Assembly (NCBI GenBank): GCA_009729775.1
Contig: GCA_009729775.1_4081.1
DNA from: Escherichia coli
Lineage (GTDB): Bacteria; Pseudomonadota; Gammaproteobacteria; Enterobacterales; Enterobacteriaceae
DNA: 64,000 bases
Strand: one strand, 5' to 3'
In this document: positions 8,614 to 36,065 of the stretch, piece after piece
Layout: the number at the start of each line of letters is the position of its first letter
Position numbering within the stretch: position 1 is the first letter of the stretch
Position numbers and translations under genes: made by a program
Notes under the pieces: model-generated
Database searches by the model: none
Told to the model about the DNA's origin: nothing
Seen by the model: only the letters and a program-made list of their open reading frames with translations

Positions 8614-8959
8614 AATTTACCTCGTGTGTGATATAACTCCACGCAGTAAGAATATCTATTTGTATATCCTGTACTTCATGAAAATATTTAAGTACCTTCT
8701 GGTATTCCATTATTTTGTACACATCTTCAGTACTGATAGTGCTCTGCTGAAACAATTCCTCTTCTGATAAAGTACTATAATCAGGGATTTTTATTTCTGA
8801 ATATATATCATTTATCTTTCCATTGTCTTGATAAATCTGGATATAAAATTGATTGTATTCTGGAATATAGGTTACATAATGATTGTGTCTGATTACATAT
8901 CTTGAAACAAAGTATTCAGTACCATCAGTCATGTACTGAATTGTTGTCGTATTTTGCAT
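8597..8959 (-). CDS. family A paralog
   Basis: core EEELFQQSTI. Confidence 0.7.
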   Translation of the reverse strand: MQNTTTIQYMTDGTEYFVSRYVIRHNHYVTYIPEYNQFYIQIYQDNGKINDIYSEIKIPDYSTLSEEELFQQSTISTEDVYKIMEYQKVLKYFHEVQDIQIDILTAWSYITHEVNYVRND

Positions 8960-9419
8960 TCAAATAATCCACGCATTTATAGTATACTACTAAATCTAAA
9001 AAGAATCGTTGTTTGTATTTGTAATGATGAAGTAGTGCACCATAAAATAACATAGCATTAAGTACTTTTACATCATGAATACAAGAACCCTGAAAGTACA
9101 TTTCCTCTGACATGAACACTAAATCATCATACTTAACAAATACTGCTTCTCTATAATTGTCAATATTAATCTTCAAATCAGACCCAGGGCAATATGAAAT
9201 GTATCCGGCTTTGTAATGAAAGTCATTGTCATCAAAGTACTCGGTATAGATTTGATTACCTCTTTCATTAGTAAATGCAAGTCTTCCGTTGGATGAACTA
9301 AACTCATCGTATTCGAACATACCACCAAATGGGTCAGGACTTCTGAACTCCTTTGCAATGCGATAGATATTTTCTGCAAATTCTAAAACACCATCGTAAT
9401 CATATTCTGTAGTAATCAT
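8925..9419 (-). CDS. family A paralog
   Basis: core EEMYFQGSCI; start approximate. Confidence 0.65.
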   Translation of the reverse strand: MITTEYDYDGVLEFAENIYRIAKEFRSPDPFGGMFEYDEFSSSNGRLAFTNERGNQIYTEYFDDNDFHYKAGYISYCPGSDLKINIDNYREAVFVKYDDLVFMSEEMYFQGSCIHDVKVLNAMLFYGALLHHYKYKQRFFLDLVVYYKCVDYLNAKYDNNSVHD

Positions 9420-9892
9420 AAACCATTTTTCTCCAGGTACTCAATAATACAATCGAGATTGTTCAGGTCCAAGTAGAAATGATCACTATCTGAATTTAGT
9501 TCATTTTTAAGGGCAGTGTAAATCACTGAACTGAAAACAATCCTCTCTGGATACACAGTACTGTACTGGAAGAACTCTTCTTCAGTGTTAATTTCAGCCG
9601 TATCAAATCCTTCATTTATAAGATGATGATTGTAGTATTTGAAATTATCTGAACTTGGGAAATGGTATGAAATAAAATCACCACTTGGTACTTCATCAAG
9701 CACTCTAATACTACAAGTTGATTCATCTGAACTATAGAGTAACACATCCATAAAGGAAAGGTATCCATTTCGTTTTTTGACTGTATGTTTGCCTACGGAA
9801 AAATCTTCAGTAACATTTGTAAGGAATTTATAAACCCTGATAATGTCTTTTGCTATTTTTTGTGCATTGCTAAATGATAGGTCTTTGGACAT
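9416..9892 (-). CDS. family A paralog
   Basis: core EEEFFQYSTV. Confidence 0.7.
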   Translation of the reverse strand: MSKDLSFSNAQKIAKDIIRVYKFLTNVTEDFSVGKHTVKKRNGYLSFMDVLLYSSDESTCSIRVLDEVPSGDFISYHFPSSDNFKYYNHHLINEGFDTAEINTEEEFFQYSTVYPERIVFSSVIYTALKNELNSDSDHFYLDLNNLDCIIEYLEKNGL

Positions 9893-12153: not shown

Positions 12154-12704
12154 AATAGTTCCTTATACATATGATGTACTTTACAAATCTCATTATAGTA
12201 TTTCATATCAATGTCATTTGTATTAAAAACGGAAACAGACAATACTGCTAACTTATCAATTAAGTAATTATTATCGGCGTACTCTTTTAACTTATTGAAC
12301 ATATAGATGCATTTTATGCTTAATTCATCATGCAACACACTGTTCTGAAAAATATTCTCTTCAGTATTAGGAGATAAGTAATCTTCAATTATATACGATA
12401 AACTACTATCGCAATCTTTATAGATTGAAATTGATGGATGTAATGTGTCATACATTACACTAAACAGAACACCGTCATATGTGGATATTAAACTATTATT
12501 GGAAACAGTAGGATGATAATATTTCAGTACTGAAAACTTTGAACAATCAGTGCAGTAAAAATGATCCATCCCTCGACGACTTTCGTATGAGAATAGTTTA
12601 CTTGTATATTCAATCCCTTTGGTGCGACGGATTGTTTCATGCATTTCTGCACATTGCATTAAAATTACCATACGTTCAAACGCAATATCTAAATCATCGT
12701 ACAT
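12144..12704 (-). CDS. family A paralog
   Basis: core EENIFQNSVL. Confidence 0.7.
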   Translation of the reverse strand: MYDDLDIAFERMVILMQCAEMHETIRRTKGIEYTSKLFSYESRRGMDHFYCTDCSKFSVLKYYHPTVSNNSLISTYDGVLFSVMYDTLHPSISIYKDCDSSLSYIIEDYLSPNTEENIFQNSVLHDELSIKCIYMFNKLKEYADNNYLIDKLAVLSVSVFNTNDIDMKYYNEICKVHHMYKELLCQ

Positions 12705-12885
12705 AACGGATATCCTTCTTCAGCGAATTAATATATTCCAAAATAACTTGTTCCTGATATTGGGTTCCCAAGTACATCAGGACTTTCAACTCTTTGAATT
12801 CAGTACTATATGAGTCTGTTTGCATCATTCTAGTAGAATATATATTGAATAGTTTAGCAATGTCATTTTGGTCTATTATTTTCAT
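12694..12885 (-). CDS. family B paralog (small protein)
   Basis: 63 aa; motif YLGTQYQEQV; isolated inside family A array. Confidence 0.65.
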   Translation of the reverse strand: MKIIDQNDIAKLFNIYSTRMMQTDSYSTEFKELKVLMYLGTQYQEQVILEYINSLKKDIRYVR

Positions 12886-13084
12886 ATATTCTCTTCTGGA
12901 TTAGTTCCTGTAAGTGCTGAATATAACCCTTCATTGCAACATCCTGTTTGTTAGAGCCAACGAAGAACAAGAGCTTAAAGTCATGGTAATCCATTTTTGG
13001 TTTAGTAGTGAACCATATGTCCCACACTGCACTCACAGTTCTCATGTATTCAATTCGATTAAATGTTTTTGAATACTTCATCAA
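12863..13084 (-). CDS. family B-like small protein (divergent)
   Basis: 73 aa; FVGSNKQDVAMKGYIQHL. Confidence 0.5.
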   Translation of the reverse strand: MMKYSKTFNRIEYMRTVSAVWDIWFTTKPKMDYHDFKLLFFVGSNKQDVAMKGYIQHLQELIQKRIYENNRPK

Positions 13085-13595
13085 TGTTAATCGCCAATAA
13101 GTTAATATACAAATTACTGTTAAATGCTATCTGCAATTCCATATAGAACTGAATGATAGCATAGTCAGGGTCAGTACACGATAGTTGAAAACACTGTTCG
13201 TCAAATGCATTGTAATTGTACTTAGGGATGTGAATTTCACGCTTCAAATCAGGTTGACCCCACTTCATCGCATACACACCAATGTTATTGTTCTTTTTCC
13301 TTTTCTTAAATGTTAATTGTTGAATATTTCCAGCGTTGTCTAGGAAAATAGTATTATTCGACACAGGTGCACCAATAGAAAACAATGATGTATCAATTAC
13401 GTGTGTCTCACGCACCTCACACTTCTGGAATGCCCCAGTACCCTGTAATACATAATGAAAATTGTACTTCTCATTAACAACAGTACTAGGATCGATTAAA
13501 CCAGTACTGCATTTTTTGAGTACTGGTACAATGGTGCGAATCTTTTTTGATAAATCTTGTAATGCATCAAAGTCATTGATGTTAACTTTCATCAC
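13059..13595 (-). CDS. family A paralog
   Basis: core DEQCFQLSCT. Confidence 0.65.
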   Translation of the reverse strand: MMKVNINDFDALQDLSKKIRTIVPVLKKCSTGLIDPSTVVNEKYNFHYVLQGTGAFQKCEVRETHVIDTSLFSIGAPVSNNTIFLDNAGNIQQLTFKKRKKNNNIGVYAMKWGQPDLKREIHIPKYNYNAFDEQCFQLSCTDPDYAIIQFYMELQIAFNSNLYINLLAINIDEVFKNI

Positions 13596-14041
13596 TCGAA
13601 TGTAGCCTCTTCAGTAGTAACAAAATTGGTTAGTGTATCCAGTTCAGCAGTGTCAAGATAAAATACATCTAGTACAGATTTCTGATATATTACACTGAAT
13701 GTGCATAGATTGTCAAGTGTCCCTTGTTCATAAACAGTACTACCCTGGAAGTACCCTTCTTCAGTACTCAGGGATAAAATATCTGAAATTTTAAAAGATT
13801 CTTCAGTTGCATGTCTTTCTATATTAACTATATTGCCGTTTCGGTTCAATGAAATATAATCGTATGCTAACTCAATTAGACTATAATTATCCGCATTAGT
13901 GTCAAATAAAGCGACAATTTTTCGTCTCAATCTCTCATCGTGATCATGGTTTTCATCAGCTAAGTATTCAGGATTTTCTTTGAAGAATTTAACGACGCGT
14001 AGAATATCATTTGCTTTCTTGATTGCACTTTCGTAACTCAT
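13592..14041 (-). CDS. family A paralog
   Basis: core EEGYFQGSTV. Confidence 0.7.
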   Translation of the reverse strand: MSYESAIKKANDILRVVKFFKENPEYLADENHDHDERLRRKIVALFDTNADNYSLIELAYDYISLNRNGNIVNIERHATEESFKISDILSLSTEEGYFQGSTVYEQGTLDNLCTFSVIYQKSVLDVFYLDTAELDTLTNFVTTEEATFE

Positions 14042-14346
14042 AATAATTCAACCACTCCATCTCTAAAGTACATATAACTACCACCATTGGATACTGTGAA
14101 TTCTATTGTCCCCAATAATATATTATATTTTTTTATTTCACATGTAGTACTTGTAGTGTAAGGCTCACCATCTCCTAAGTACATTGACATATGACATAGA
14201 ACTTTTCTACCAGCATATTTCTCTTCAAACGATTGTTCAAAACTATGCATAATTTGATTTAAAGCTGAAATGTAATTAATAAAGTCAGGTATTTCTGTTA
14301 ATGAATTATAAACCGTACAAAGTGAATCAAATTCATTTTTAGTCAT
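14038..14346 (-). CDS. hypothetical protein
   Basis: 102 aa ORF. Confidence 0.55.
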   Translation of the reverse strand: MTKNEFDSLCTVYNSLTEIPDFINYISALNQIMHSFEQSFEEKYAGRKVLCHMSMYLGDGEPYTTSTTCEIKKYNILLGTIEFTVSNGGSYMYFRDGVVELL

Positions 14347-14660
14347 TATATTTCTATCTCAATGTAATCCTGTGTGATTAAGTAATTCCAATGATACTTC
14401 ACCTGCTTTTGTAATTCAATTAACGTAAAGAAGTTGATCGATTTATCCCACACGAGCGATTCCTGGAAAATAAATGATTCATGTTCATCGTAATAATCAC
14501 ACTCTAAAAAATCAGGTATATATTCACTATCGTGAATGTATTCAACAAATGAACTAGCTTGGCATTTCTTTACTACTAGTAATAATGAATTATCATGATC
14601 AAACAGATACAATAAACTAATTTCACCAGGGACGTACTGAACACTGAATAAGTTTTTCAT
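14346..14660 (-). CDS. family A paralog
   Basis: core ESFIFQESLV. Confidence 0.7.
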   Translation of the reverse strand: MKNLFSVQYVPGEISLLYLFDHDNSLLLVVKKCQASSFVEYIHDSEYIPDFLECDYYDEHESFIFQESLVWDKSINFFTLIELQKQVKYHWNYLITQDYIEIEI

Positions 14661-15109
14661 TCTATACCTTCTGGATCTTTACGAAGTTCTTCGAAATCCA
14701 AATAAAATCGAGGACAGTTAACACTCTTTAAGTACCACATAATAACTAATGCTTCAAGTACTTCATCATCGTAAACAGTACTGTTTTGGAAGTAATACTC
14801 TTCACTATCCCACGGACCTTCCAGTACTTCATAATTCAAAATTAATGGTTTTTTGCGATTAATAAAACGAATGCTACCATTTTCAACATAACTAATAAAT
14901 TCTGCATCTCTATTGTATTCAGAAAACGATATAGGACTATTGGAATTCAACCCAAGAATAACCCTTACACCAACGGAGTTATTATACATTTCATCCTTGT
15001 AGTAGTTGCCGTTCTCGGCTTTGTACACTTCTTTGAACTTTCCTGCCTTTATATCGTCAAAGTATCCATGTAGTTCTTTTGCTTTTTCAAGAGCACTTTG
15101 TAATGACAT
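14657..15109 (-). CDS. family A paralog, MSLQSAL subfamily
   Basis: N-term MSLQSALEKAK; core EEYYFQNSTV; VIMWYLK. Confidence 0.75.
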   Translation of the reverse strand: MSLQSALEKAKELHGYFDDIKAGKFKEVYKAENGNYYKDEMYNNSVGVRVILGLNSNSPISFSEYNRDAEFISYVENGSIRFINRKKPLILNYEVLEGPWDSEEYYFQNSTVYDDEVLEALVIMWYLKSVNCPRFYLDFEELRKDPEGIE

Positions 15110-15575
15110 TACCTTCTCCTACAGTATTCTCTACATATTCATAATCAAAATAGAAACTACTGGAGTCAATACTTTTGAAATACCACATAATTACAATAAC
15201 ATCTAATTCTTCTTCATTGTACAACGTACTATTCTGGAAGTAATATTCTTCACTATCCCACGGTCCTTCCAGTACTGAATAAGGAATGATAGTGTCATCA
15301 GCATCACTATCTGTGTTGTAGATGGTAATATCTTCATTACGACAATAACTAATGTACTGATTGTACATATGATATTCACAGTTATCACTGTCACCAGTAT
15401 CAGTGTGCAGTACTAATGTTTCTGCACATATCTCGGACTCGTCATAATCGTCACGGTCTTTTACAAAAAATTCAGTATCAGATGTTTTATATACACCTGG
15501 TACTGAACCTTCCTGTACCATAATCATGTACTCATGAATCTTCTTTGCTTCTTTCAATGCACTTTGTAATGACAT
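15087..15575 (-). CDS. family A paralog, MSLQSAL subfamily
   Basis: N-term MSLQSALKEAK; core EEYYFQNSTL. Confidence 0.75.
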   Translation of the reverse strand: MSLQSALKEAKKIHEYMIMVQEGSVPGVYKTSDTEFFVKDRDDYDESEICAETLVLHTDTGDSDNCEYHMYNQYISYCRNEDITIYNTDSDADDTIIPYSVLEGPWDSEEYYFQNSTLYNEEELDVIVIMWYFKSIDSSSFYFDYEYVENTVGEGNVITKCS

Positions 15576-16018
15576 TACAAATCCCCTGTACTTAAATATT
15601 CACATGCTCCCCAGTCAAGAAAGAATGGTTCAAAATTCAATTCCTTAAAGTACCACAACACAACCAAGGAATCAAGAATTTCTTGGTTAAAAATGAGACT
15701 CTGTTGGAAGTAATACTCTTCAGTACCCCACGGGCCATCAAGTACCCCGAAGTCAACAGGTGTATTTGTTGTGTCAAAAGTAATCTTAGTACCTGGAATA
15801 TATACAAAAAAATTAGTATATTGACTACATGAAGAGTACTGTATAGTATTGTCTTTATCCTGTCCCATAAGTAAAATATCATCAGAGTATGTCTTTATAC
15901 CTGATAGATAATACTCATCACCAAATGCACTTACTTTATCACCATAGAAACCACTTTTTATGTTATCGTGGAAGTGATGTATTCTGTGTGCTAGTTCAAG
16001 TGCACTTGCTAAACTCAT
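15575..16018 (-). CDS. family A paralog, MSLQSAL subfamily
   Basis: N-term MSLASALELAH; core EEYYFQQSLI. Confidence 0.75.
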   Translation of the reverse strand: MSLASALELAHRIHHFHDNIKSGFYGDKVSAFGDEYYLSGIKTYSDDILLMGQDKDNTIQYSSCSQYTNFFVYIPGTKITFDTTNTPVDFGVLDGPWGTEEYYFQQSLIFNQEILDSLVVLWYFKELNFEPFFLDWGACEYLSTGDL

Positions 16019-16485
16019 ATATCCTCTTTAATAACTCGTAGTAGATCCAAGTCCAAATAGAAGCTAGGACAATCTGTATTATTAAAGTACCACAGAATGA
16101 CAAGCTTGTCAAGTACATCTTCCTCGTAGATAGTATTCTGCTGGAAGTAGTACTCTTCACTTCCCCAGTCATTATCCAGTACTGAATACGGAAGATGTTT
16201 CTCTGCTGCACCAGATATAATGTCAGAATCTTGTATTAAAATATCAGCATCACGACAGAAGTACATGTAATTATCTTCCAAATTAACATCACACCCATTG
16301 AGTGTTGTTTCAGAAGAATCTAAGTTTTCTTCATACATGTGAATGTACTCACTACTGTCATCGTATCTCATTCGACAATATGATTTACCTTCCTTGAATA
16401 GATATCCATTAAGACAATTTGCTACAATTTCTTTGCTGCATAAATCAATTAACTTCGCAATCTCTAATGCTCTTTCTAAACTCAT
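16015..16485 (-). CDS. family A paralog, MSLQSAL subfamily
   Basis: N-term MSLERALEIAK; core EEYYFQQNTI. Confidence 0.75.
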   Translation of the reverse strand: MSLERALEIAKLIDLCSKEIVANCLNGYLFKEGKSYCRMRYDDSSEYIHMYEENLDSSETTLNGCDVNLEDNYMYFCRDADILIQDSDIISGAAEKHLPYSVLDNDWGSEEYYFQQNTIYEEDVLDKLVILWYFNNTDCPSFYLDLDLLRVIKEDI

Positions 16486-16486
16486 T

Positions 16487-16978
16487 TCAACCCCTGTTAA
16501 TACCGTTATCTACAGTTTTCTTTACGTATTTGTAATCGAAATAGAAGTTCCCAGAACCAATACTTTTAAAGTACCACATAATTATAATAACATCAAGTAC
16601 TTCATTATCATATACAGTACTTTGTTGGAAGTAATACTCTTCACTATCCCACGGACCTTCCAGTACTTCACTCGGAATTATAATGTCATTGGAATCGCTG
16701 TCAGTACTGTTGATGGTATCTGTATCATTAATATAGACCATGTACTCATTATGCATATTAATGAAGCATTCATAATCATTAGGGTCGGTATCTAGTATGC
16801 ACGTTTCTGTATCCAGTACGCACGTTTCTGTATCTGAGCAGTCATTATAAAGGAGGTTATCCGGTACATAATATTGAGTACTTGTGTCTTTGAAAACACC
16901 GTAAACTGAACCTTCTTTTGCCATATTCATGTACTCATGAATCTTCTTTGCTTTTTCCAATGAACTCTGTAATGTCAT
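16487..16978 (-). CDS. family A paralog, MSLQSAL subfamily
   Basis: N-term MTLQSSLEKAK; core EEYYFQQSTV. Confidence 0.75.
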   Translation of the reverse strand: MTLQSSLEKAKKIHEYMNMAKEGSVYGVFKDTSTQYYVPDNLLYNDCSDTETCVLDTETCILDTDPNDYECFINMHNEYMVYINDTDTINSTDSDSNDIIIPSEVLEGPWDSEEYYFQQSTVYDNEVLDVIIIMWYFKSIGSGNFYFDYKYVKKTVDNGINRG

Positions 16979-16987
16979 TTTATAATC

Positions 16988-17347
16988 TCATATATTGAAA
17001 TAATAATTATTCGTTCTTGATGGGGATGGATTAAATACGTTTTCTTTTTCAAATCTCTTCATTTCATTTTGCAAAGAAACCATTTCTTCAAATGTACAGG
17101 AGTACTTATTCTTATCAAACACTAATGCAGCCTGAAATAGTTCACCATCGTCCAGTACTGTATAATCTATAAGACTCTCAGATTCATAGTCATAGTCGTC
17201 ATGTGATACATGAATAAATTTAAAACAAGAATCTTTGTAATGCATATATAAACTCAACTCATGTTCCGAGTCGCCCTTAATAAGATTACAGCACAAGTCC
17301 CATCCTTTAGGTAACTTATAATAGTACATAGAATAATCATATGTCAT
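16988..17347 (-). CDS. family A paralog
   Basis: core DGELFQAALVFDKNKY. Confidence 0.7.
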   Translation of the reverse strand: MTYDYSMYYYKLPKGWDLCCNLIKGDSEHELSLYMHYKDSCFKFIHVSHDDYDYESESLIDYTVLDDGELFQAALVFDKNKYSCTFEEMVSLQNEMKRFEKENVFNPSPSRTNNYYFNI

Positions 17348-17700: not shown

Positions 17701-18071
17701 CAGTACTCAACCTCTACATAAATAGATTCAGGAAACTTAGTCATATAATCTTCTGGATAGTTCTGCATTACTTTGATCATTTCTGCCTGTGTAGCACGGA
17801 CGTATTCAATTGGTGCTCCTGGTAAATTCCAGACAGTACTTTCCTGAAAGAATTCCTCTTCTGACAGTACTGTCAGATTTACAAAATCATTACGGTAATT
17901 TTTTGAATCATCATATGTGAAGATTTTAAAAGACCCATTTTCATATAGTACAAGAACAAAATGGGAGAATTTTTGTAATGCACCACCAAGGCTTTCCACG
18001 ACCGCATGATTCAGTGTACAGATGACCTCTTTTTTCCTCATACCGAATTGAATTCTAATTTCTTTTTTCAT
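17700..18071 (-). CDS. family A paralog
   Basis: core EEEFFQESTV. Confidence 0.7.
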   Translation of the reverse strand: MKKEIRIQFGMRKKEVICTLNHAVVESLGGALQKFSHFVLVLYENGSFKIFTYDDSKNYRNDFVNLTVLSEEEFFQESTVWNLPGAPIEYVRATQAEMIKVMQNYPEDYMTKFPESIYVEVEY

Positions 18072-18129
18072 AAAATCTCCTTCAGATTAGTACTGAATTT
18101 GTACAGAATATTAGAACTGTATACAGCCT

Positions 18130-18228
18130 CTGTATCTGTATCCATAATCAAATCACCTTTGTTTAAATTACAAAAGTACTGATAACTGTGCTTAAAAGAA
18201 TGTACTGATATTAAAAAATCAAATTCCA
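18130..18228 (-). pseudogene. truncated duplicate of the 5' end of gene 17344..17700
   Basis: about 85 bp near-identical to 17620-17700 (N-terminal codons MEFDFLISVH...) followed by unrelated sequence and early stop. Confidence 0.5.
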
Positions 18229-18606
18229 TCACTCTTCCCCTAGATTGAAATGATTACAAAAATCATCTTCACCAGTACTGCACCAGATGTCTATACATTC
18301 TCTGTGAATACATTTAATTCTACGCTGTAATTCAATCATCTCTTCTAATGTACAGATGTACTTCTTATCAAATACTAATGCCGCCTGAAACAGTGCAGCA
18401 TCATCAAGTACTGTATAGTCCAACATCTCGGTTGCTTTACCCCTAAACCCAGTACTAAAATCCATCAAATAAAAGTCAGCATTCCAGTACTTTAAAATCT
18501 TGTCCCTAGCGTAGTTTAAATCACCCTTGTATAAGTTAGAGTGCGTAACTAACTCACCAGTGTACATCCATGTCCTTGCACAAAATTCATTATATTTTAT
18601 TTCCAT
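18229..18606 (-). CDS. family A paralog
   Basis: core DAALFQAALVFDKKY; start moved to internal Met (MEIKYNEF); track N-terminal extension runs through an intergenic region. Confidence 0.6.
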   Translation of the reverse strand: MEIKYNEFCARTWMYTGELVTHSNLYKGDLNYARDKILKYWNADFYLMDFSTGFRGKATEMLDYTVLDDAALFQAALVFDKKYICTLEEMIELQRRIKCIHRECIDIWCSTGEDDFCNHFNLGEE

Positions 18607-18801: not shown

Positions 18802-19026
18802 CTATTTATTCAGCATAGAAAGCTTGATTTCTTCAATCCTTTTCATTGCACAAAGCCTTCGACTCGTCCTCTCGTATATATTCAATACTCGCTGTAATGC
18901 ATTATCTGTATTATCTGGAACTGCAATCTGAACCAAATATGTATCCTTCAAAATAGAATCCATCATGAATTCAAAACCTTTCACACTAAAGCAATATGCC
19001 ACTTCCGGCTCTTCAAACGTAATCAT
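18802..19026 (-). CDS. hypothetical protein
   Basis: 74 aa ORF. Confidence 0.45.
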   Translation of the reverse strand: MITFEEPEVAYCFSVKGFEFMMDSILKDTYLVQIAVPDNTDNALQRVLNIYERTSRRLCAMKRIEEIKLSMLNK

Positions 19027-19243
19027 AATTCCAATCCCCTATTCCCTCTAACCTTCTAAGATATCTTGCGTAAATTATTTCGAAATATCTGTGCAACGAA
19101 ATTACGGATTGCTCATAATCATCATTCCTGTACATTGTGCATGTCAGAAAATCATTTAACCCAAAATCTAAACTGCACTTGAACTTCTCCTTTGCAATAT
19201 CACTATTACTTGCACTTTTCATAATAAACCCTTTGTACCGCAT
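19013..19243 (-). CDS. hypothetical protein
   Basis: 76 aa ORF. Confidence 0.45.
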   Translation of the reverse strand: MRYKGFIMKSASNSDIAKEKFKCSLDFGLNDFLTCTMYRNDDYEQSVISLHRYFEIIYARYLRRLEGIGDWNYDYV

Positions 19244-27417: not shown

Positions 27418-27727
27418 TAGGCTCCTGTTTAGATTCTTTCATTAGTACTATCATCTTATGTACTAATGGCATAGGGAACTCTAAATCCCATACTAATGAT
27501 TCCTGGAAGTATTCCTCTGGTGATAAAGTACTTAAATCTTTAATATCAACGTGCTTGTATATTTTATTTTCGTAATTAACAAATGATATATATAAATCAC
27601 TAACATAAGAATCATAGGTAATTGTGAATGGCTTACCCTTGTAATCCATTACATCTCTACATAGACTACTTTTGATATATGTATGTTCAAATGATTTATA
27701 TACCTTGAGTTGTATATTAGTTTTCAT
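27383..27727 (-). CDS. family A paralog
   Basis: core PEEYFQESLV. Confidence 0.7.
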   Translation of the reverse strand: MKTNIQLKVYKSFEHTYIKSSLCRDVMDYKGKPFTITYDSYVSDLYISFVNYENKIYKHVDIKDLSTLSPEEYFQESLVWDLEFPMPLVHKMIVLMKESKQEPNGDYEEHTVEY

Positions 27728-27992
27728 ATTTCTCTTTATTAGCTTGTTTGGTTTTATAGTGAATTAAATCTATTAATGTAATCAAGTACAACTTCAAAAA
27801 GTACTCTTGATGGTTCGTACCTAATGATACAAAGAATTTATGCTCATAAATTAAAACCTGTTTCACTTCAAAAGGACACTTAATCCTCTGTATAGGTTTA
27901 AGTAAATGGTAGTACTTGTATAATCTATTATGCATTTCTAATTCAGATAGTACTTTCATATTAAACACATACTCCATTAGCTGTAGCATCAC
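27717..27992 (-). CDS. family B paralog
   Basis: motif FVSLGTNHQEYF. Confidence 0.65.
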   Translation of the reverse strand: MMLQLMEYVFNMKVLSELEMHNRLYKYYHLLKPIQRIKCPFEVKQVLIYEHKFFVSLGTNHQEYFLKLYLITLIDLIHYKTKQANKEKYEN

Positions 27993-28182
27993 GTAAAGCT
28001 GTCAAATACTTCTGTACTGCTTGCTCTTGCTTATTTGTACCTAAAAGTATATACATCCATAATTCACTGTAATGTACATCTTGTGTATAAGGGTTGTTGT
28101 AACTTTTTGATAATATAGCATCAAATTCAGATGCATGAACCCTTGTGAACTTAAGCATATCTTGTTGTGTTATGATTCTCAT
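27961..28182 (-). CDS. family B paralog
   Basis: motif ILLGTNKQEQAV. Confidence 0.7.
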   Translation of the reverse strand: MRIITQQDMLKFTRVHASEFDAILSKSYNNPYTQDVHYSELWMYILLGTNKQEQAVQKYLTALRDATANGVCV

Positions 28183-28394
28183 ATCTTTTCCTGTATAAGC
28201 TTCTTAAGAATCTCAATATATGAATTAACAGTTCTCTCTTGATGCTGTGTTCCTAAGAGTGTCAGTACTATCATATCTGAACGCAAAAGATTTTTTTCAA
28301 GTTCACTTATATCAGTTCTTGAATCAAGTGCCATATATTTGTGATTATTCTTCCTGAATAGTGCCAAGTACTCTTGATTTGATATTTCCTTCAT
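28179..28394 (-). CDS. family B paralog
   Basis: motif LTLLGTQHQERTV. Confidence 0.7.
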   Translation of the reverse strand: MKEISNQEYLALFRKNNHKYMALDSRTDISELEKNLLRSDMIVLTLLGTQHQERTVNSYIEILKKLIQEKI

Positions 28395-28618
28395 AGTCTA
28401 TCCTTGATGCCATTTAAAAGTGCTCTAATATGCTCATTGACAAAACGCTCTTGGGAATCTGTGTTTAGAGTGAGAAGCATTCTTAAATCTGAACTTTTTA
28501 TATGATATTCTAAATCATTCTTTGATTCTCGCATAAGTTTCTGAAAGGATGAGAAGTGTAATCCCATGAGTTCAATGTATTCTGCTGTTCCTAGGGGTTT
28601 GTGTATATGTTTGTGCAT
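28391..28618 (-). CDS. family B paralog
   Basis: motif LTLNTDSQERFV. Confidence 0.65.
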   Translation of the reverse strand: MHKHIHKPLGTAEYIELMGLHFSSFQKLMRESKNDLEYHIKSSDLRMLLTLNTDSQERFVNEHIRALLNGIKDRL

Positions 28619-28830
28619 TTTAATTGTATTACCCTTTTGAGTGTATTAATGTAATTATACACATTGGCTTCTTGATAGTTAGTTCCTAGAGTAGCTTGAA
28701 CGTAGATTTCATTTAACTTAATGATTTTATCAGTATCTGGTAGTTTTGATGTGTTAATGGCAAATAACTTCAAAAACAGTCCATTTATGATTGTTAGGTA
28801 TTCTTCTTCTGTAATGATTTTCATTTGCAT
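28591..28830 (-). CDS. family B paralog
   Basis: motif ATLGTNYQEANV. Confidence 0.7.
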   Translation of the reverse strand: MQMKIITEEEYLTIINGLFLKLFAINTSKLPDTDKIIKLNEIYVQATLGTNYQEANVYNYINTLKRVIQLKCTNIYTNP

Positions 28831-29036
28831 TTTCTCAGTACTGATTCTTTAAGTTCATTGATGTAGTCCTCAATGTATTGCTCTTGTAAGTTAGTTCCAA
28901 CATATAAAAGAACTCTTAAATCGGCTCTAAGTACTTCTTTGTCATCATCATCTATATCAGACAGTGTTATGTTTAAGAATTTACTTGCATTCTCTATAAG
29001 TAATATTACTGAATCACCTTCGCTTAAAATTTTCAT
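28821..29036 (-). CDS. family B paralog
   Basis: motif LYVGTNLQEQYI. Confidence 0.7.
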   Translation of the reverse strand: MKILSEGDSVILLIENASKFLNITLSDIDDDDKEVLRADLRVLLYVGTNLQEQYIEDYINELKESVLRKCK

Positions 29037-29244
29037 AATCTCTTTTTGCTTTCCTCGCCAAAAGGTACATATACGATTCTTCGTATTGTGCTTGATAGTT
29101 TGTGTTTAAGAGTCGAAACAACTTCTGTTCTGCTAGAACGAGTTGCTTATCTTCATAACAACGATAGCGTATCAACTTTTTGTATTCGATGTTGATTACA
29201 TCCATTACTATAAGCCCATGTTCATCATCTGTCAAGTGTTTCAT
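29014..29244 (-). CDS. family B paralog
   Basis: motif RLLNTNYQAQY. Confidence 0.65.
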   Translation of the reverse strand: MKHLTDDEHGLIVMDVINIEYKKLIRYRCYEDKQLVLAEQKLFRLLNTNYQAQYEESYMYLLARKAKRDYENFKRR

Positions 29245-29470
29245 GTATCTTTTCCTTAATAGTGATTTTAAGAGATTTAATTATACGTTCAACGTGATAC
29301 TCCTGTCTATCAGTTCCAAGAAGGTATGGTAGTGCTTGGAATAGAGCTTCCGCATTCTTTTCCTCTGGGGTTTGGTTTGGATCATTAGGAAGTTGATTGG
29401 CATATCTCTTGGCACTAACTAATCTCTCGACGTATTCATTATATGTTAAGTATATCATTTCATTTTGCAT
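29225..29470 (-). CDS. family B paralog
   Basis: motif YLLGTDRQEYHV; near-identical to next gene. Confidence 0.7.
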   Translation of the reverse strand: MQNEMIYLTYNEYVERLVSAKRYANQLPNDPNQTPEEKNAEALFQALPYLLGTDRQEYHVERIIKSLKITIKEKIHETLDR

Positions 29471-29696
29471 TTACTTTTTCCTTAATAGTAATTTTAAGAT
29501 ATTTAATTATACGTTCAATGTGATACTCTTGCCTATCAGTTCCAAGAAGGTATGGTAATCTTTGGAATAAAACTTCTGCACTCCTTTCTGCTGGGGTTTG
29601 GTTTGTGTTGTGAGGAAGTTTATTTGTAAGTCTTTTGGATTTATCTAGTCTTTCTGTTAACTCATCATGTGTTAAGTATATCATTTCCTTTTGCAT
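29460..29696 (-). CDS. family B paralog
   Basis: motif YLLGTDRQEYHI; near-identical to previous gene. Confidence 0.7.
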   Translation of the reverse strand: MQKEMIYLTHDELTERLDKSKRLTNKLPHNTNQTPAERSAEVLFQRLPYLLGTDRQEYHIERIIKYLKITIKEKVNAK

Positions 29697-29923
29697 TTAA
29701 TGTTCCTTACGTAAATTGTCTGGATTAAACAATCAATCCACGTTTGAATATATTGGTTTTGATACTGTGTGCCTAAAAGACTCTGCATTTTAAACTCTGC
29801 TTCAAGTTCATATCTCTTTTCTATAGAAAAGCTTAAATGACCATATTCCCTATCGTATCTTCTATGAGCTTCGCCAAGTCTATCAAATCTTTCTGATAAT
29901 CTGATGTTATTAATTTTATTCAT
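29681..29923 (-). CDS. family B paralog
   Basis: motif SLLGTQYQNQYI. Confidence 0.7.
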   Translation of the reverse strand: MNKINNIRLSERFDRLGEAHRRYDREYGHLSFSIEKRYELEAEFKMQSLLGTQYQNQYIQTWIDCLIQTIYVRNIKCKRK

Positions 29924-30210
29924 CGCTCAGTACACCTTAGTGGACGGGTCATTTGATAAAAGTACAGCTTACCTCTGATTTCCATTAGTAATTCATTTAA
30001 TACGCGTTCTACCTCTTGTTCTTGATAGTTCGTGCCTAACAATGCACCCATCTTTAACTCACGCATCATAATCATCTTCTTACTGTGTTGAATTTCTGGG
30101 TTGTGATAGATTGTATTACGTTTAAGAGTAATTTTTGCCATACGCTCGGTATATTCATCTTTACTTAAATTAATCATTTTCATGTTAATTACCCTTACAT
30201 TTATTTTCAA
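29920..30210 (-). CDS. family B paralog
   Basis: motif ALLGTNYQEQEV; start may be internal Met. Confidence 0.65.
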   Translation of the reverse strand: MKINVRVINMKMINLSKDEYTERMAKITLKRNTIYHNPEIQHSKKMIMMRELKMGALLGTNYQEQEVERVLNELLMEIRGKLYFYQMTRPLRCTER

Positions 30211-30415
30211 TACTATTCATGAGTTCTATAAGATAGTTTTCTACCTTACCTTCCTGATAGTTAGTCCCTAGGAAGTTGCACAACACGGCTTCTATAATTT
30301 TGATTTTCCTGATATCCGACTTCAATCTTTTGTTATTGAATATTTGAATCCTTATATCTCTGGATGCATTTAAACGTTTTTGATAGTCATGGTAAGTTAA
30401 ATGAATCATTTTCAT
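30185..30415 (-). CDS. family B paralog
   Basis: motif NFLGTNYQEGKV. Confidence 0.7.
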   Translation of the reverse strand: MKMIHLTYHDYQKRLNASRDIRIQIFNNKRLKSDIRKIKIIEAVLCNFLGTNYQEGKVENYLIELMNSIENKCKGN

Positions 30416-30630
30416 TTACGTTTAACCTCTCGCTGGAGGGCATCAATTAACATTAGTACAGCATTCTCTTGATAGTTTGTTCCTAAGACTGAAAGCATCT
30501 TTATCTCATTTACTAAAATCAACTTCTTTGAGGGTTCAATAATGTGACTATCATAAACGGCCTTACGTGCTGGATAAGTTTTCGCCAGTATAACATAAAA
30601 TTCGTCTTTACTTAAATTAATCATTTGCAT
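30412..30630 (-). CDS. family B paralog
   Basis: motif SVLGTNYQENAV. Confidence 0.7.
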   Translation of the reverse strand: MQMINLSKDEFYVILAKTYPARKAVYDSHIIEPSKKLILVNEIKMLSVLGTNYQENAVLMLIDALQREVKRK

Positions 30631-30839
30631 TTACTTTTAACCTCTTTCTGTAGAGCGTCAATCCATAGATCTACATACATTTGTTGATAGTTTGTGTCTA
30701 TTAGTGCACCTACATAGAGTTCAGCTACCATTGCGTGCTTTATGTCAATAGGGATGCTCTTATCAGATTGAATCTTTCTCCTTCTGCTTCCACATGTTTT
30801 CAGGAGCCTGATGTATTCAAAACCTTGTAAATTTCTCAT
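30621..30839 (-). CDS. family B paralog
   Basis: motif ALIDTNYQQMYV. Confidence 0.65.
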   Translation of the reverse strand: MRNLQGFEYIRLLKTCGSRRRKIQSDKSIPIDIKHAMVAELYVGALIDTNYQQMYVDLWIDALQKEVKSKCK

Positions 30840-31051
30840 ATTTTGGATACCACCTTGTTACGTAAGGAACTTAATAATACGTCAGTGTAGATGTTTTGAT
30901 AGTTTGTTCCTACGAATGCACCCAACTTCATTTCAGCTATTATAACACATTTGTCCTCTTGTGCAATAGACTTGTCTAAAGAAATACTAACAACTTTCCC
31001 TCTTATAGTTTGTAACCTCCAATGATACTGATACTCATTAAGGATTATCAT
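30836..31051 (-). CDS. family B paralog
   Basis: motif AFVGTNYQNIYT. Confidence 0.7.
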   Translation of the reverse strand: MIILNEYQYHWRLQTIRGKVVSISLDKSIAQEDKCVIIAEMKLGAFVGTNYQNIYTDVLLSSLRNKVVSKI

Positions 31052-31298
31052 TCTCTCGTCTCCAGATTTCGGTTCTCATGTGTTGGCAGTGTGCATCAAT
31101 ATATTGCTCTATCGATCTGGCGATTGCTGTTTTATCAGTGCCTGTCATCAGTACAAGCATCTCTGCCTCACTATGAATTAAACGCATGATATCATAGGGT
31201 AATATTTCAGATACTGTATCATAGTGTTTGTGTGTCAGTGTCTGCAATAGTTTACAATACATTTTGTGATTTAGTCTTTGTCGCATTGTTTCTTCCAT
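31038..31298 (-). CDS. family B paralog (divergent)
   Basis: motif region LMTGTDKTAIA, same size and position in array. Confidence 0.5.
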   Translation of the reverse strand: MEETMRQRLNHKMYCKLLQTLTHKHYDTVSEILPYDIMRLIHSEAEMLVLMTGTDKTAIARSIEQYIDAHCQHMRTEIWRRENDNP

Positions 31299-31543
31299 TC
31301 TCTTCTGGCTTGACGGGTTTTTTCTGATATTTCGTTTCTCAATGCAGAGATATATCGTAGAGTGAACAGTTCTTGATAGTTAGTCCCTATGAATTTATTA
31401 AGATATACATCAGCGTTGACGATATCAGCTTCACGGGAATTATAAAGTTTATTGTTCGTGCGAAGGGTGTTTAGAAGAGAGAAGAGGGCAGTCTGATACT
31501 CAGTGCTTGATAAAGTTTTCATATTTTTCCACAATTCGTTCAT
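31271..31543 (-). CDS. family B paralog
   Basis: motif KFIGTNYQELFT. Confidence 0.65.
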   Translation of the reverse strand: MNELWKNMKTLSSTEYQTALFSLLNTLRTNNKLYNSREADIVNADVYLNKFIGTNYQELFTLRYISALRNEISEKTRQARREWKKQCDKD

Positions 31544-31757
31544 TTAGTTTTATCTGTATAAGATCCATTAGTTGTTCAAGATAATCGGTACAATATTTCT
31601 CTTGATATTGGGTTCCCACAAAGTACAGCAACCATAGCTCATGAACTTTAACTTTCATCTCGTTCCATGAAAGTGCATCGTCATCGTAGATTACTCTTGC
31701 TTCTGGGGTGAGCTTTCTAACTCTAATTGAATATTCATCGTCAGTTAAGTGTTTCAT
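31500..31757 (-). CDS. family B paralog
   Basis: motif YFVGTQYQEKYC. Confidence 0.65.
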   Translation of the reverse strand: MKHLTDDEYSIRVRKLTPEARVIYDDDALSWNEMKVKVHELWLLYFVGTQYQEKYCTDYLEQLMDLIQIKLNERIVEKYENFIKH

Positions 31758-31972
31758 TTACATTTATCCCTTATTAGATTTGTGAGGGCAACTATGTGTG
31801 CAACAACATACTCTTCCTGAAAGTTCGTCCCCAGTACAGCCATCATGCGTATATCGGTGGTGTTTATCCTGTGTTCCCTTACACATAAACCTTCTTTGTG
31901 AGGAAGTGTAAAATATTTGTTTATTGCAGCAATGACAATTTTATTCTTCTCGGTGATACTTAAATGTTTCAT
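31754..31972 (-). CDS. family B paralog
   Basis: motif AVLGTNFQEEYV. Confidence 0.7.
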   Translation of the reverse strand: MKHLSITEKNKIVIAAINKYFTLPHKEGLCVREHRINTTDIRMMAVLGTNFQEEYVVAHIVALTNLIRDKCK

Positions 31973-32181
31973 AGTTTACTCCTGATATAATTCTGAAGTG
32001 CAATTAAGTATTCCCCTACATAATACACCTGAAAGTCTGTATCAAGGAATGCACCCATAAGTAAATCTTTTTCTAATACCCTTGATAAGTTAAGGTCTGC
32101 ATTTGAAAGGTATATAAGTAAGATTTCACCCTGTGCGGAATTGAAACGTTTCTTATATTCTTCTGGTGTTAAAAAAATCAT
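31969..32181 (-). CDS. family B paralog
   Basis: motif AFLDTDFQVYYV; close paralog of next gene. Confidence 0.65.
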   Translation of the reverse strand: MIFLTPEEYKKRFNSAQGEILLIYLSNADLNLSRVLEKDLLMGAFLDTDFQVYYVGEYLIALQNYIRSKL

Positions 32182-32393
32182 AATTTGCTCCTGATATATT
32201 TCTCAAGAGATGACAAATACTTTTCCTCATAATACTTCTGATAGTCTGTTCCTAAGAATGCACCCAATAGTATATCATTTTCCAATACCTCGGCTAAGTT
32301 TAAATCAGAAGTCTCTTCGTATATTATGAGGATTTCAAGTTGTCTGGCAGCGATGCGTTCAGTATATTGATATGAGTTTTCTATAATAATCAT
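32178..32393 (-). CDS. family B paralog
   Basis: motif AFLGTDYQKYYE. Confidence 0.7.
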   Translation of the reverse strand: MIIIENSYQYTERIAARQLEILIIYEETSDLNLAEVLENDILLGAFLGTDYQKYYEEKYLSSLEKYIRSKL

Positions 32394-32599
32394 AATTTAC
32401 TCTTTATATCTTCTATTAAAAATCGAATCCATTCTTCAACATAATCTTCCTGATGGTTTGTGTTCAGTACAGCCAACATGCGGATCTCTGCTCTTGCAAC
32501 TTCAATTTCAGTTTTAGGAAGGTCTTTGCTGATATCCACCATTAAGTCCATGTATTTCAAGATAAGTCCGAATGATTGGGTTCGTGTTATAGTTTTCAT
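32390..32599 (-). CDS. family B paralog
   Basis: motif AVLNTNHQEDYV. Confidence 0.65.
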   Translation of the reverse strand: MKTITRTQSFGLILKYMDLMVDISKDLPKTEIEVARAEIRMLAVLNTNHQEDYVEEWIRFLIEDIKSKL

Positions 32600-32796
32600 T
32601 GTTTCCTCGTGGACAATGTTTTATTTTTCAATGTATCCACATATTTCGTTACCCATGCATCCTGATAGTTAGTTCCCAATGTAATCAAAAGGTATAACTC
32701 CATTCGTTCTACGTGTGAGTCTGTATTATAAATCTTTGTGAAGTTTTTACGTAACAGTGCTTGATATTCTTTTTCGGTTAATTTACGCATTTTCAT
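32596..32796 (-). CDS. family B paralog
   Basis: motif ITLGTNYQDAWV. Confidence 0.7.
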   Translation of the reverse strand: MKMRKLTEKEYQALLRKNFTKIYNTDSHVERMELYLLITLGTNYQDAWVTKYVDTLKNKTLSTRKQ

Positions 32797-32990
32797 AGTT
32801 TACTCGTTACATCTTCAATTAAATACCAAATCCAATCGTTGACATACCTTTCCTGAAAGTTAGTTCCAATGAATAGTGCCATAATTAATTCACGCTTATA
32901 GGCAATACCACGGTCATGGGACTTATACATTATCATAGCCATGTTATTGATAAGTCTTTCGTGGTGTTCTGCTTGAGTTAAAATACGCAT
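32793..32990 (-). CDS. family B paralog (first gene of array)
   Basis: motif LFIGTNFQERYV; start set at internal Met (MRILTQ) with AAGGGAG RBS; the track start at 33020 would lie inside the promoter. Confidence 0.6.
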   Translation of the reverse strand: MRILTQAEHHERLINNMAMIMYKSHDRGIAYKRELIMALFIGTNFQERYVNDWIWYLIEDVTSKL

Positions 32991-33020
32991 AGGGACTCCC
33001 TTAAAATTAATATCAATCAT

Positions 33021-34469: not shown

Positions 34470-34590
34470 TTACTCACCGTTATGAACTATCTTACAGATA
34501 CTTCTCTGCACCCTGTGGGCTAGTTTTTGTCTATGCGTATATAATAGCAAAGGGACTGACCGGAGTCAATCCCTTTTTTTATTCTTTTTT
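34470..34590. repeat. repeated intergenic composite element (GCACCCTGTGGGCTAG core and AAGGGACTGACCGGAGTCAATCCCTTTTTT hairpin)
   Basis: near-identical copies at about 36390-36510, 39760-39870, 43790-43920. Confidence 0.6.
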
Positions 34591-34810: not shown

Positions 34811-34875
34811 GTGCGGGAGAACTATTCCCCCGCTCTATGTAAAACATTATACATTATCTTGTAGTACTGTCAAAT
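34811..34875 (-). promoter_or_regulatory. early promoter cassette (TTGACA-16-TATAAT) and 5' hairpin
   Basis: reverse complement of intergenic region. Confidence 0.55.
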
Positions 34876-34880
34876 AGTTT

Positions 34881-35138
34881 TTATGAGATATCTTCGATAT
34901 AGTCGGCCCATGTCATTTGTTCAGTACTATCGAGTGCACCAGGATTATTTGGATCAAACCATTCGCCATCCCCTAAGTACATTGCAGCGGATACCGCTTT
35001 ATAGCCATTATAGGCGTTATTCCACTGCATAGCACGATAGATATGGCCTTTAATTGGTGTTAGTACTGGTAACGTTTTATGGTCTTCTACGTAGGCTGTA
35101 GCGATTGGATTTACCCGATACGTTTTGAACTGTTCCAT
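34881..35138 (-). CDS. hypothetical protein
   Basis: 85 aa ORF. Confidence 0.5.
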   Translation of the reverse strand: MEQFKTYRVNPIATAYVEDHKTLPVLTPIKGHIYRAMQWNNAYNGYKAVSAAMYLGDGEWFDPNNPGALDSTEQMTWADYIEDIS

Positions 35139-35212
35139 GATGTTTCCCCTTTAGTTAGTAAAGTTAATACAACAGTACTATCACGCATTGTCAATAGTAC
35201 TGAAATAAAACT

Positions 35213-35437
35213 TTAGATTAGATTATTGATGCCGTTGATGGTAGACTCGCTTTCTTCTTTCTCCCATTGGCGGTAATACTTCCATGCTTCATGATAGGTG
35301 GCGATCAGTTCATCTTTTTGATCCTGAGTACATGCCAGTACTGAATCACTGTAAGCGGTGTTATAGATAGAATCAAATGATTTCTTCTCTTCTGCCAGGG
35401 TAGCTACTTCCCGCATCAGTTCATCAAAGTTAGCCAT
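35213..35437 (-). CDS. hypothetical protein
   Basis: start at MANFDELM; track extension covers 5' hairpin. Confidence 0.55.
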   Translation of the reverse strand: MANFDELMREVATLAEEKKSFDSIYNTAYSDSVLACTQDQKDELIATYHEAWKYYRQWEKEESESTINGINNLI

Positions 35438-35454
35438 TTTAGTACTCCTTATTA

Positions 35455-35520
35455 GTGGGGGAGGATATCTCCCCCTATGCAAAACATTATACTTTGTTTT
35501 ACTTACAATGCAAGTACTTT
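35455..35520 (-). promoter_or_regulatory. early promoter cassette (TTGCAT-16-TATAAT) and hairpin GGGGGAG-atat-CCTCCCCC
   Basis: reverse complement of intergenic region. Confidence 0.55.
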
Positions 35521-35712
35521 TTAAATTTTATTTCCGATATAGTCCGGCCTGTTCTTTTCGGTCATACGCTTAAGCATTTTTTGCATATGGCTTATTGCTT
35601 GTAGTGTATCCTCTTCCAGCGATGAATCAAGATAATCAGGATCATTCTTCACCTTACAATGATTATGATAGCGTAGTACTGCCAGTACTTTTTTAACTTC
35701 TTCAACTGTCAT
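35521..35712 (-). CDS. hypothetical protein
   Basis: 63 aa ORF. Confidence 0.45.
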   Translation of the reverse strand: MTVEEVKKVLAVLRYHNHCKVKNDPDYLDSSLEEDTLQAISHMQKMLKRMTEKNRPDYIGNKI

Positions 35713-36062: not shown

Positions 36063-36065
36063 TAC

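Follow-up and report, generated by a model that had tools for sequence, protein, structure and literature searches.

An old tandem sub-family of five acidic proteins, conserved at both ends and divergent in the centre, in an Asteriusvirus jumbo phage

We analyzed five adjacent paralogous genes (g1 to g5) at positions 14657-16978, on the minus strand, of a 64,000-nucleotide stretch (the window) of contig GCA_009729775.1_4081.1 from the Escherichia coli assembly GCA_009729775.1. The window belongs to an Asteriusvirus jumbo coliphage of the PBECO4/121Q type, and the five genes form a monophyletic sub-clade of a much larger tandem family. A sequence-only reading had described the cluster as a recent amplification of close paralogs in which a central loop region then diversified. 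That interpretation is half right: the genes do form a tandem sub-clade and their centre does diverge, but the duplication is not recent and the centre is not a loop. The explanation we favour, to which we give an even chance, is that the five proteins are an old sub-family (phrog_9317) of a lineage-specific family of at least 36 members, in which a conserved scaffold carries a variable sheet, and that they act as early host- or defence-binding effectors exchanged between phages as cassettes.

Conserved ends and a variable centre in five adjacent genes

The five open reading frames (ORFs) lie back to back in the ORF listing, exactly where they had first been placed:

14657-15109, minus strand: g1, 150 aa, isoelectric point (pI) 4.67, net charge -10; member of phrog_9317
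15087-15575, minus strand: g2, 162 aa, pI 4.05, net charge -26; closest paralog g5 (58% amino acid identity)
15575-16018, minus strand: g3, 147 aa, pI 4.25, net charge -14
16015-16485, minus strand: g4, 156 aa, pI 4.10, net charge -21; 10-residue insertion after the N-terminal helix
16487-16978, minus strand: g5, 163 aa, pI 4.05, net charge -20; present in only some of the phages

In BLASTP searches within the window the five proteins are mutual best matches (67-166 bits) and reach at most 37 bits against any other ORF. These best matches, together with a neighbor-joining (NJ) tree, bear out tandem duplication within a larger tandem family. The paralogs are less close than had been supposed, with amino acid identities of 30-40% between pairs and 58% for g2/g5 only.

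The motifs first quoted for the cluster are present in an alignment of the five proteins, with variation between copies. The N-termini read MSLQSALEKAK, MSLQSALKEAK, MSLASALELAH, MSLERALEIAK and MTLQSSLEKAK, and all five share a W[DG][ST]EEYYFQ[NQ] block and a C-terminal V[IV][ML]WY[FL]..(7)..F[YF][LF]D. Nineteen alignment columns are invariant, including M1, L3, L7, A10, W100, E103-E104-Y105-Y106-F107-Q108, W125-Y126, F135 and D138. The variable centre is real and spans about 70-80 residues rather than 60. Its description as Asp/Thr-rich suits g2, g3 and g5 (D 8-13, T 8-10) and fails for g4, where the centre is rich in D, E and S (T=2), and for g1, where it is rich in N, S and E (D=2, T=0).

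The five proteins are the most acidic of the array (pI 4.05-4.67, net charge -10 to -26), compared with a median pI of 5.0 for the family and of 7.7 among 64 ORFs on the minus strand of the adjacent 28-52.9 kb region.

Age of the duplication

All ten paralog pairs were compared by protein-guided codon alignment and Nei-Gojobori counts. Over whole genes, the proportion of synonymous differences (pS) was 0.60-0.76 in every pair, with synonymous divergence (dS) at least 1.2 or undefined. Synonymous sites are thus saturated, and the duplication is not recent. Paralog nucleotide identity was 47-70% over whole genes, 52-88% over the first 20 codons and 58-78% over the 48-codon C-terminal block, and it was lowest in the centre (35-50%; 60% for g2/g5), in line with the proposed pattern of conserved ends and a divergent middle.

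A DNA repeat search found only two block types between copies, one of about 145 nt at the 3' end and one of about 51 nt at the 5' end, and the longest blocks extended over 145-218 nt at 65-78% identity:

14690-14834, minus strand: reference copy of the ~145-nt 3' block, with the W..EEYYFQ..WYFK core; five copies at 65-78% identity, spaced 437-484 nt apart
15138-15282, 15608-15752, 16045-16189 and 16529-16673, minus strand: the other copies of the 145-nt block, from the repeat search
15062-15112, minus strand: reference copy of the ~51-nt 5' block, with the start codon and N-terminal helix; 61-76% identity, from the repeat search
15528-15578, 15971-16021 and 16931-16981, minus strand: other copies of the 51-nt block; the g4 copy appears only as a 23-nt repeat at 16463-16485

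DNA similarity is confined to these short end blocks, which comes close to the outcome that the sequence-only reading had itself named as speaking against a recent duplication, namely similarity restricted to the short motifs.

The 5' ends of g2 and g5, which are 88-93% identical over the first ~60 nt (pS 0.11), are one possible hint of more recent exchange and could reflect gene conversion. Within g5, a 21-bp tandem repeat (16788-16834, minus strand; 2.2 copies with 92% matches in Tandem Repeats Finder) encodes TETC[VI]LD twice. Orthologs of g5 in several other phages carry a single copy of this unit (alleles P0008-P0010; gap columns 48-54 of the ortholog alignment), and the repeat is a small, recent intragenic duplication.

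Orthologs, copy number and selection across related phages

We compared the cluster across 11 related genomes (12 with the window) and in the divergent phages A4 and JNE01. Positional orthologs of each copy share 68-100% amino acid identity, versus 30-58% between paralogs. One-to-one orthologs of g1 to g4 are present in all 11 related genomes, and these four genes are retained in every PBECO4/121Q-type genome examined; in 121Q, genes 370-374 are the positional orthologs of g5 to g1. Identities are 85-100% for g2, 80-100% for g3 and 84-100% for g4. Orthologs of g1 fall into two allele classes (92-100% and 68-69%), out of step with how far the other genes have diverged, which indicates mosaic exchange. 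The divergent phage A4 encodes counterparts of g5 (A4_354, 77%), g4 (A4_355, 92%) and g3 (A4_356, 93%) and a g2-like gene (A4_357, 61%), and no g1 counterpart was found in it. JNE01 has a g4-like gene (58%) and more divergent family members. In the NJ tree each of the five genes has an ortholog clade of its own, g2 and g5 being sisters, and all five lie within a clade apart from the nearest other family members. Since these ortholog clades are separate across the genus, and four of the counterparts already so in A4, the duplications predate the radiation of the sampled genus.

The expectation that copy number would differ between related isolates was borne out, as tblastn with g1 hit 5, 4 or 2 places per record across 36 records. 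Five intact copies are present in 7 of the 12 genomes, g5 being absent from Turkey3, WPEC5, fEgEco12 and ph0011 and truncated in SD-1_S14. The g5 slot of fEgEco12 (38318-38844) holds a 114-aa short-type family member (EAEIFQES) and an unrelated 61-aa ORF. Conversely, a 102-aa non-family ORF at 14038-14346 of the window (minus strand) corresponds to a slot in fEgEco12 (40976-41419) that holds a 147-aa long-type family member. ORFs of 444-474 nt are annotated in the same slot in SP27, Ecwhy_1, ph0011, WPEC5 and Turkey3. The variation in copy number looks like loss or replacement rather than fresh gain: no duplication younger than the divergence of the isolates was found in these genomes, and the absence of g5 from four of them coincides with replacement by other genes. 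The array appears to behave as an exchangeable cassette set in the arm adjoining the terminal repeat.

Selection was estimated among orthologs as region-pooled Nei-Gojobori ratios of nonsynonymous to synonymous divergence (dN/dS), using 5-10 alleles and excluding the very short tails beyond the core:

g1: N-terminus 0.30, centre 0.37, C-terminus 0.16
g2: N-terminus 0.08, centre 0.11, C-terminus 0.07
g3: N-terminus 0.42, centre 0.34, C-terminus 0.13
g4: N-terminus 0.23, centre 0.39, C-terminus 0.24
g5: N-terminus 0.18, centre 0.39, C-terminus 0.12

The ratio is below 1 in every region of all five genes, and the centre exceeds the C-terminus in each. This indicates relaxed purifying selection on the centre with no gross positive selection, each paralog being kept as a gene of its own. 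The regional comparison of synonymous and nonsynonymous change therefore divides the earlier interpretation: the centre is indeed less constrained than the C-terminus, while saturation between paralogs contradicts a recent origin and ortholog ratios of 0.11-0.39 in the centre do not portray diversification as an ongoing process.

Recent tandem amplification, with a central loop then diversifying rapidly under positive selection, would account for the adjacency of five copies that form a clade, for a centre far more divergent than the ends, for the closeness of g2 and g5 and their similar 5' stretches, and for the young 21-bp duplication in g5. It is nevertheless largely refuted, and we regard it as highly improbable, given the saturated synonymous sites of every pair, the separation of the five ortholog groups across the genus (with g2-like, g3, g4 and g5 genes already distinct in A4), the low dN/dS of the centre among orthologs, and the confident prediction of the centre as a beta-sheet (below).

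A lineage-specific family of at least 36 members

An iterative hidden Markov model (HMM) search seeded with the five genes recovered 36 ORFs of the window at E below 1e-3, which we refer to as the F-Q family. Two tandem arrays lie side by side:

2200-27727, minus strand: wider tandem array of at least 36 ORFs of one superfamily with a [DE]E..FQ.S motif, from the iterative HMM search
27717-33020, minus strand: second tandem array of about 26 consecutive genes of 66-96 aa with an L-G-T-N-Y-Q-E...Y[IL]..L motif

In alignments of 35 and 44 sequences, the F and Q of the F-Q motif are invariant and the E is at least 90% conserved; the motif stands at the start of the C-terminal helical core. Members are either long (~150-200 aa, with an N-terminal helix) or short (~105-125 aa, without it), and most pairs share <35% identity. 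The five-gene cluster is the most coherent sub-clade of the array. The start of the second array nearly coincides with the inner boundary inferred for the terminal repeat (~33.1 kb), and scattered relatives of it occur at 12694-13084 and possibly at 18802-19243.

Each of the five proteins matches the full-length phrog_9317 profile ("unknown function"; positions 1-155/158 of 160), well beyond what chance would give, with E values of 8.4e-60, 8.9e-66, 2.3e-55, 5.5e-59 and 6.5e-64 for g1 to g5. They are plain members of this group with no distinguishing feature, and membership provides no functional explanation. The sister group phrog_12674 (also "unknown function") is their secondary match (E 1e-6 to 1e-13), and the neighbours at 13592-14041, 9416-9892 and 8925-9419 show the reverse pattern, matching phrog_12674 over phrog_9317. 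Searches of Pfam with the five proteins and three neighbours, and then with the 35 aligned members, gave nothing above noise, as did NCBIfam and PADLOC scans, and a sequence-profile search of the PDB returned 0 matches. A profile search of 1.84 billion representative proteins yielded 147 clusters at E up to 1e-3. Ten cluster representatives were sampled, and all were Asteriusvirus proteins or came from ~350-kb contigs labelled E. coli or from metagenome contigs, from which we conclude that the F-Q family is lineage-specific.

Tandem arrays of >30 similar genes have been described in 121Q and read as genome expansion (Hua et al. 2017, PMC5646251), a statement repeated in a 2026 review (PMC13282480). 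The phage group is the same and the F-Q array has at least 36 members; however, no coordinates were given, and "very similar" does not fit this family. The published array cannot be assigned to the F-Q family, since the second array at 27717-33020 could equally be meant. The accounts of Sharanji, phAPEC6, fEgEco12, UE-S1 and CBB contain nothing specific on the F-Q family.

A predicted common fold

AlphaFold2 models of g1 (predicted local distance difference test, pLDDT, 88.7; predicted template modelling score, pTM, 0.84; 35-sequence family alignment) and g5 (pLDDT 88.3, pTM 0.84; 44-sequence alignment) share one topology. A long N-terminal helix (residues 3-21) is followed by a 6-7 stranded beta-sheet, which constitutes the variable centre; the C-terminal part comprises a short helix, the EEYYFQ helix, a long helix (VIMWYFK), a final strand (FYLD) and a short helix. 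The supposed central loop is therefore at odds with the models, which place the variable part in a confidently predicted sheet. Only residues ~44-57 of g5 are loop-like; this sole low-confidence stretch, with pLDDT below 50 at 47-52, coincides with the 21-bp tandem repeat. All copies are predicted to share a single fold in which conserved helices pack on a sheet carrying nearly all of the variation and the insertions and deletions.

In a Foldseek search of BFVD, the sole structural neighbours were uncharacterised proteins of RaK2-like jumbo phages, with 121Q first (template modelling score, TM, 0.87), followed by SP27, RaK2, GAP32 and Serratia phage BF. The proteins of Klebsiella phage RaK2 (H6X4L9/H6X4N1), Cronobacter phage GAP32 (K4F5M7/K4FB05) and Serratia phage BF (A0A1S6UA47) match at E 1.5e-3 to 4e-2 with TM up to 0.66-0.70; their sequence identity is 13-16%, and they were not recovered among the ten sampled sequence-profile clusters. 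The fold is thus confidently predicted and apparently lacks a solved relative.

The E-x-x-[YF]-F-Q-x-S motif resembles the site of tobacco etch virus (TEV)/NIa-like proteases, whose consensus is E-X-X-Y-X-Q, cut before G or S. A role as a processing site, at which a phage or host protease would cut the proteins in two, could explain why F-Q is invariant in the 35-44 aligned sequences and why two neighbouring members have the exact TEV consensus, EEGYFQGS (13592-14041) and EEMYFQGS (8925-9419); g1 to g5 themselves read E-E-Y-Y-F-Q-[NQ], so that P1' is neither G nor S. We consider this role extremely unlikely. In both models the motif lies in a short helix of the high-confidence core (pLDDT 95-97) rather than in an exposed linker; no 3C/NIa-like protease is known in these phages, although no search was aimed at one; known myovirus prohead proteases cut after Glu; and the proteins do not appear to be virion components, judging from the excerpted virion data on the phAPEC6 ortholog described below. 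Because the motif is helical and lies within the model core, the likeness to a TEV site is probably coincidental. It is a practical hazard all the same, as the use of TEV-cleavable tags may result in some family members being cut.

Genome context and expression

Around the cluster, a 4-kb segment shares 99.9% identity with Escherichia phage BF17, 98-99.7% with SHEFM2K, G17, Sharanji, phAPEC6 and PBECO4, and 93.7% with 121Q. The matches comprise 36 records, every one of them a jumbo phage of Escherichia or Salmonella that belongs to, or stands close to, the genus Asteriusvirus. The G+C content of the window is 30-39%.

The physical ends of fEgEco12 have been confirmed by restriction digestion, with direct terminal repeats of 20,993 bp (PMC13070987). 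On alignment, coordinate 1 of fEgEco12 corresponds to position ~52,911 of the window and its repeat boundary to ~33,090, and the sign of the GC skew flips at 52-54 kb. By this homology, the physical left end of the genome would lie at ~52,911, in which case the window spans the genome terminus, a direct terminal repeat of ~20 kb (~33.1-52.9 kb) and 33 kb of unique left arm. The five-gene cluster is then 36-38 kb from the left end and ~16-18 kb past the promoter-dense repeat, and every gene from the left end through the cluster is on one strand.

In the equivalent of the terminal repeat, 13 perfect TTGACA-16/17-TATAAT sigma-70 promoters occur at 34,846-52,547 (minus strand), all 13 on the gene strand, and sigma-70-like sites are enriched (106 found vs 71.1 +/- 8.2 expected from shuffles). 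Between 12 and 30 kb, sigma-70-like sites are not enriched (97 found vs 110.8 +/- 10.4 expected). The terminal-repeat region also contains about ten 11/12 sigma-70 matches, promoter sites there being nearly all on the gene strand, and terminator-like hairpins are enriched (23 vs 11.2 +/- 3.2 expected). It further carries a repeated element:

34541-34576, 36464-36499 and 39823-39858, minus strand: three copies of the 36-nt element AAAGGGATTGACTCCGGTCAGTCCCTTTGCTATTAT, differing by no more than 1 mismatch; chance expectation 0

A diverged copy lies near 43885-43912. The element folds into a 12-bp hairpin whose stem contains a TTGACT -35-like hexamer; a TATTAT -10-like hexamer follows. It recalls the promoter-early stem-loops (PeSLs) of T4-type phages.

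The cluster itself has no intergenic space, and it is flanked by short-type relatives:

14346-14660, minus strand: downstream neighbour ESFIFQESLVWD, 104 aa, weak short-type family member; its start overlaps the g1 stop by 4 nt
16988-17347, minus strand: upstream neighbour, 119 aa, short-type family member, 9 nt upstream of g5

The fEgEco12 ortholog of the downstream neighbour, g120, matches the family HMM at E 5e-6. Genes overlap by 4, 1 or 23 nt (23 nt for g1/g2) or are separated by gaps of 1 and 9 nt, and the Shine-Dalgarno sequence of each gene (GGAG/GAGG/GGGG) is embedded in the last codons of the preceding one. Embedded ribosome-binding sites and tight head-to-tail packing make the block look like one translationally coupled unit. 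The C-terminal tails of g5, g4, g3 and g2 (..NGINRG, ..KEDI, ..STGDL and ..VGEGNV..) are encoded by the Shine-Dalgarno sequence of the next gene (AGGGG, GAGGA, GGGGA and GGAGAAGG, respectively). The Gly/Glu-rich character of the tails follows from these embedded sites, so part of each tail is constrained by translation initiation rather than by protein function.

Three candidate features within the cluster were discarded. An 11/12 sigma-70-like site inside g5 (16704-16677) was rejected as promoter evidence, 12-30 kb not being enriched; its conservation is uninformative because the surrounding coding sequence is ~94% or more identical among orthologs. A weak hairpin inside g4 was rejected as terminator evidence. 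A plus-strand ORF of 150 aa (16343-16795), antisense to g4/g5, is almost certainly spurious, no plus-strand gene being annotated there in the related phage records examined.

Elsewhere in the array, at ~18071-18229, the window is without ~230-290 bp that are present in BF17, CRJP21, EC22.5-2, slurp01 and 121Q and are annotated as an extra ORF of 162-225 nt in BF17 and 121Q; the GenBank record of Sharanji is broken at the equivalent position (record end 350,079 / start 1). Many F-Q family members come from contigs of ~345-360 kb labelled Escherichia coli in NCBI or Logan assemblies (e.g. the clusters of P0025, P0026, P0035 and P0041). These contigs are whole Asteriusvirus genomes inside bacterial isolate assemblies, in agreement with recent reports of lytic phage genomes in bacterial assemblies (e.g. 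PMC12768965).

Possible roles of the five proteins

Because the copies are ancient and individually constrained, each probably has a distinct task. Tandem duplication produced the sub-family well before the sampled members of the genus diverged, and each copy has since been kept as a distinct gene by purifying selection. Under the explanation we favour, the conserved helices would form a scaffold that presents the variable sheet for binding; each paralog might thereby engage its own host or defence target at an early stage of infection, to take over the host or to counter a defence, and related phages would exchange whole family members at given slots. The specific proposal that the five are early or middle cytoplasmic effectors, each directed at its own host or defence target by the variable sheet, is a tentative one that we hold at clearly less than even.

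Early expression seems likely, judging from the co-directional and promoter-rich genome end. In PA5oct, a more distant relative, genes of the direct terminal repeat are highly transcribed early (PMC7318152), and the authors of the CBB study inferred early host-takeover roles for the equivalent block of short ORFs (PMC5259590). The literature searched contained no transcriptome or early-protein function for PBECO4, 121Q, Sharanji or phAPEC6.

Several points weigh against an effector role as we envisage it. It is read from sequence, context and models, and the fold is itself a prediction from a multiple alignment made of the F-Q family. The early timing is extrapolated, since the cluster lies well beyond the repeat in a region that shows no promoter enrichment. 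Lastly, purifying selection without a gross excess of nonsynonymous change is not the classic signature of an arms race.

The ortholog of g5 in phAPEC6 is gp442c. Virion mass spectrometry of that phage found 62 proteins, and the excerpt available of its table passes from gp347 to gp549 with no gp4xx. To the extent of that excerpt, gp442c falls outside the virion list and is non-virion, which is literature evidence on an ortholog and not on this isolate. It bears directly on the idea that the five belong to the virion or help to assemble it, for example as internal, ejected or scaffold proteins. Internal head proteins can indeed be small, acidic and multi-copy, but besides the absence of gp442c and every other gp4xx from the excerpted list, the genes lie a long way from the structural module, in an arm where small genes all run in one direction, and we think this role scarcely credible.

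The genes could alternatively be largely dispensable filler with no specific function, accumulated after capsid enlargement as in the "ratchet" idea of Hua et al. (2017). The genome-expansion reading of the 121Q arrays, the natural dispensability of g5 (absent or truncated in 5 of 12 genomes) and the fact that no function is known for the family are all compatible with it. Filler would not be expected, however, to keep all frames intact with dN/dS of 0.07-0.42 across all regions of the five genes, to retain g1 to g4 in every PBECO4/121Q-type genome examined, or to show a compact, confidently predicted fold with residues invariant across at least 35 paralogs; we judge it quite improbable.

Database records of the five genes already exist for dozens of Asteriusvirus genomes and in PHROGs, and tandem arrays in 121Q are already in print. 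What remains of interest is a large, uncharacterised family, apparently with a novel fold, in the early arm of these phages, which offers a large set of small, seemingly non-virion proteins that are easy to express. If they are host-takeover or counter-defence effectors, many new inhibitors could be drawn from the F-Q family.

Comparison with known systems

T7 Ocr, T4 Arn, plasmid ArdA and the T5 pre-early genes in the terminal repeat encode small, acidic, early anti-host proteins. The five proteins resemble them in being small, strongly acidic (pI ~4) and apparently non-virion, and in belonging to a co-directional block that runs from a terminally redundant end with strong host-type promoters. 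They differ in that the five-gene cluster lies outside the terminal repeat and in having no sequence or fold similarity to these proteins. A narrower form of our favoured explanation would make them acidic DNA mimics of the Ocr/ArdA type that block restriction, BREX and other nucleic-acid-sensing defences, with each paralog tuned to its target. The high negative charge over ~150 aa, the most extreme in the array, the early-arm context and the phAPEC6 virion excerpt fit this idea, whereas no relationship to a known mimic of the Ocr, Arn or ArdA types was found in sequence or fold, and we consider it unlikely.

A second likeness is to the terminal multigene families of African swine fever virus (MGF110/360/505) and the terminal host-range families of poxviruses, for which modulation of host immunity has been demonstrated. 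Shared with these are lineage-specific tandem arrays of paralogs near a genome end, variable copy number and non-structural products. There is no homology, the role of the F-Q family is by contrast inferred, and no very recent "accordion" amplification was found here. It is possible, if somewhat doubtful, that the F-Q family is a new class of phage effectors whose fold lacks a solved relative, with a hypervariable sheet on a helical scaffold, dozens of paralogs directed against different host or defence proteins, and whole cassettes exchanged between jumbo phages; if so, it would be to these phages what the terminal multigene families are to African swine fever virus and poxviruses.

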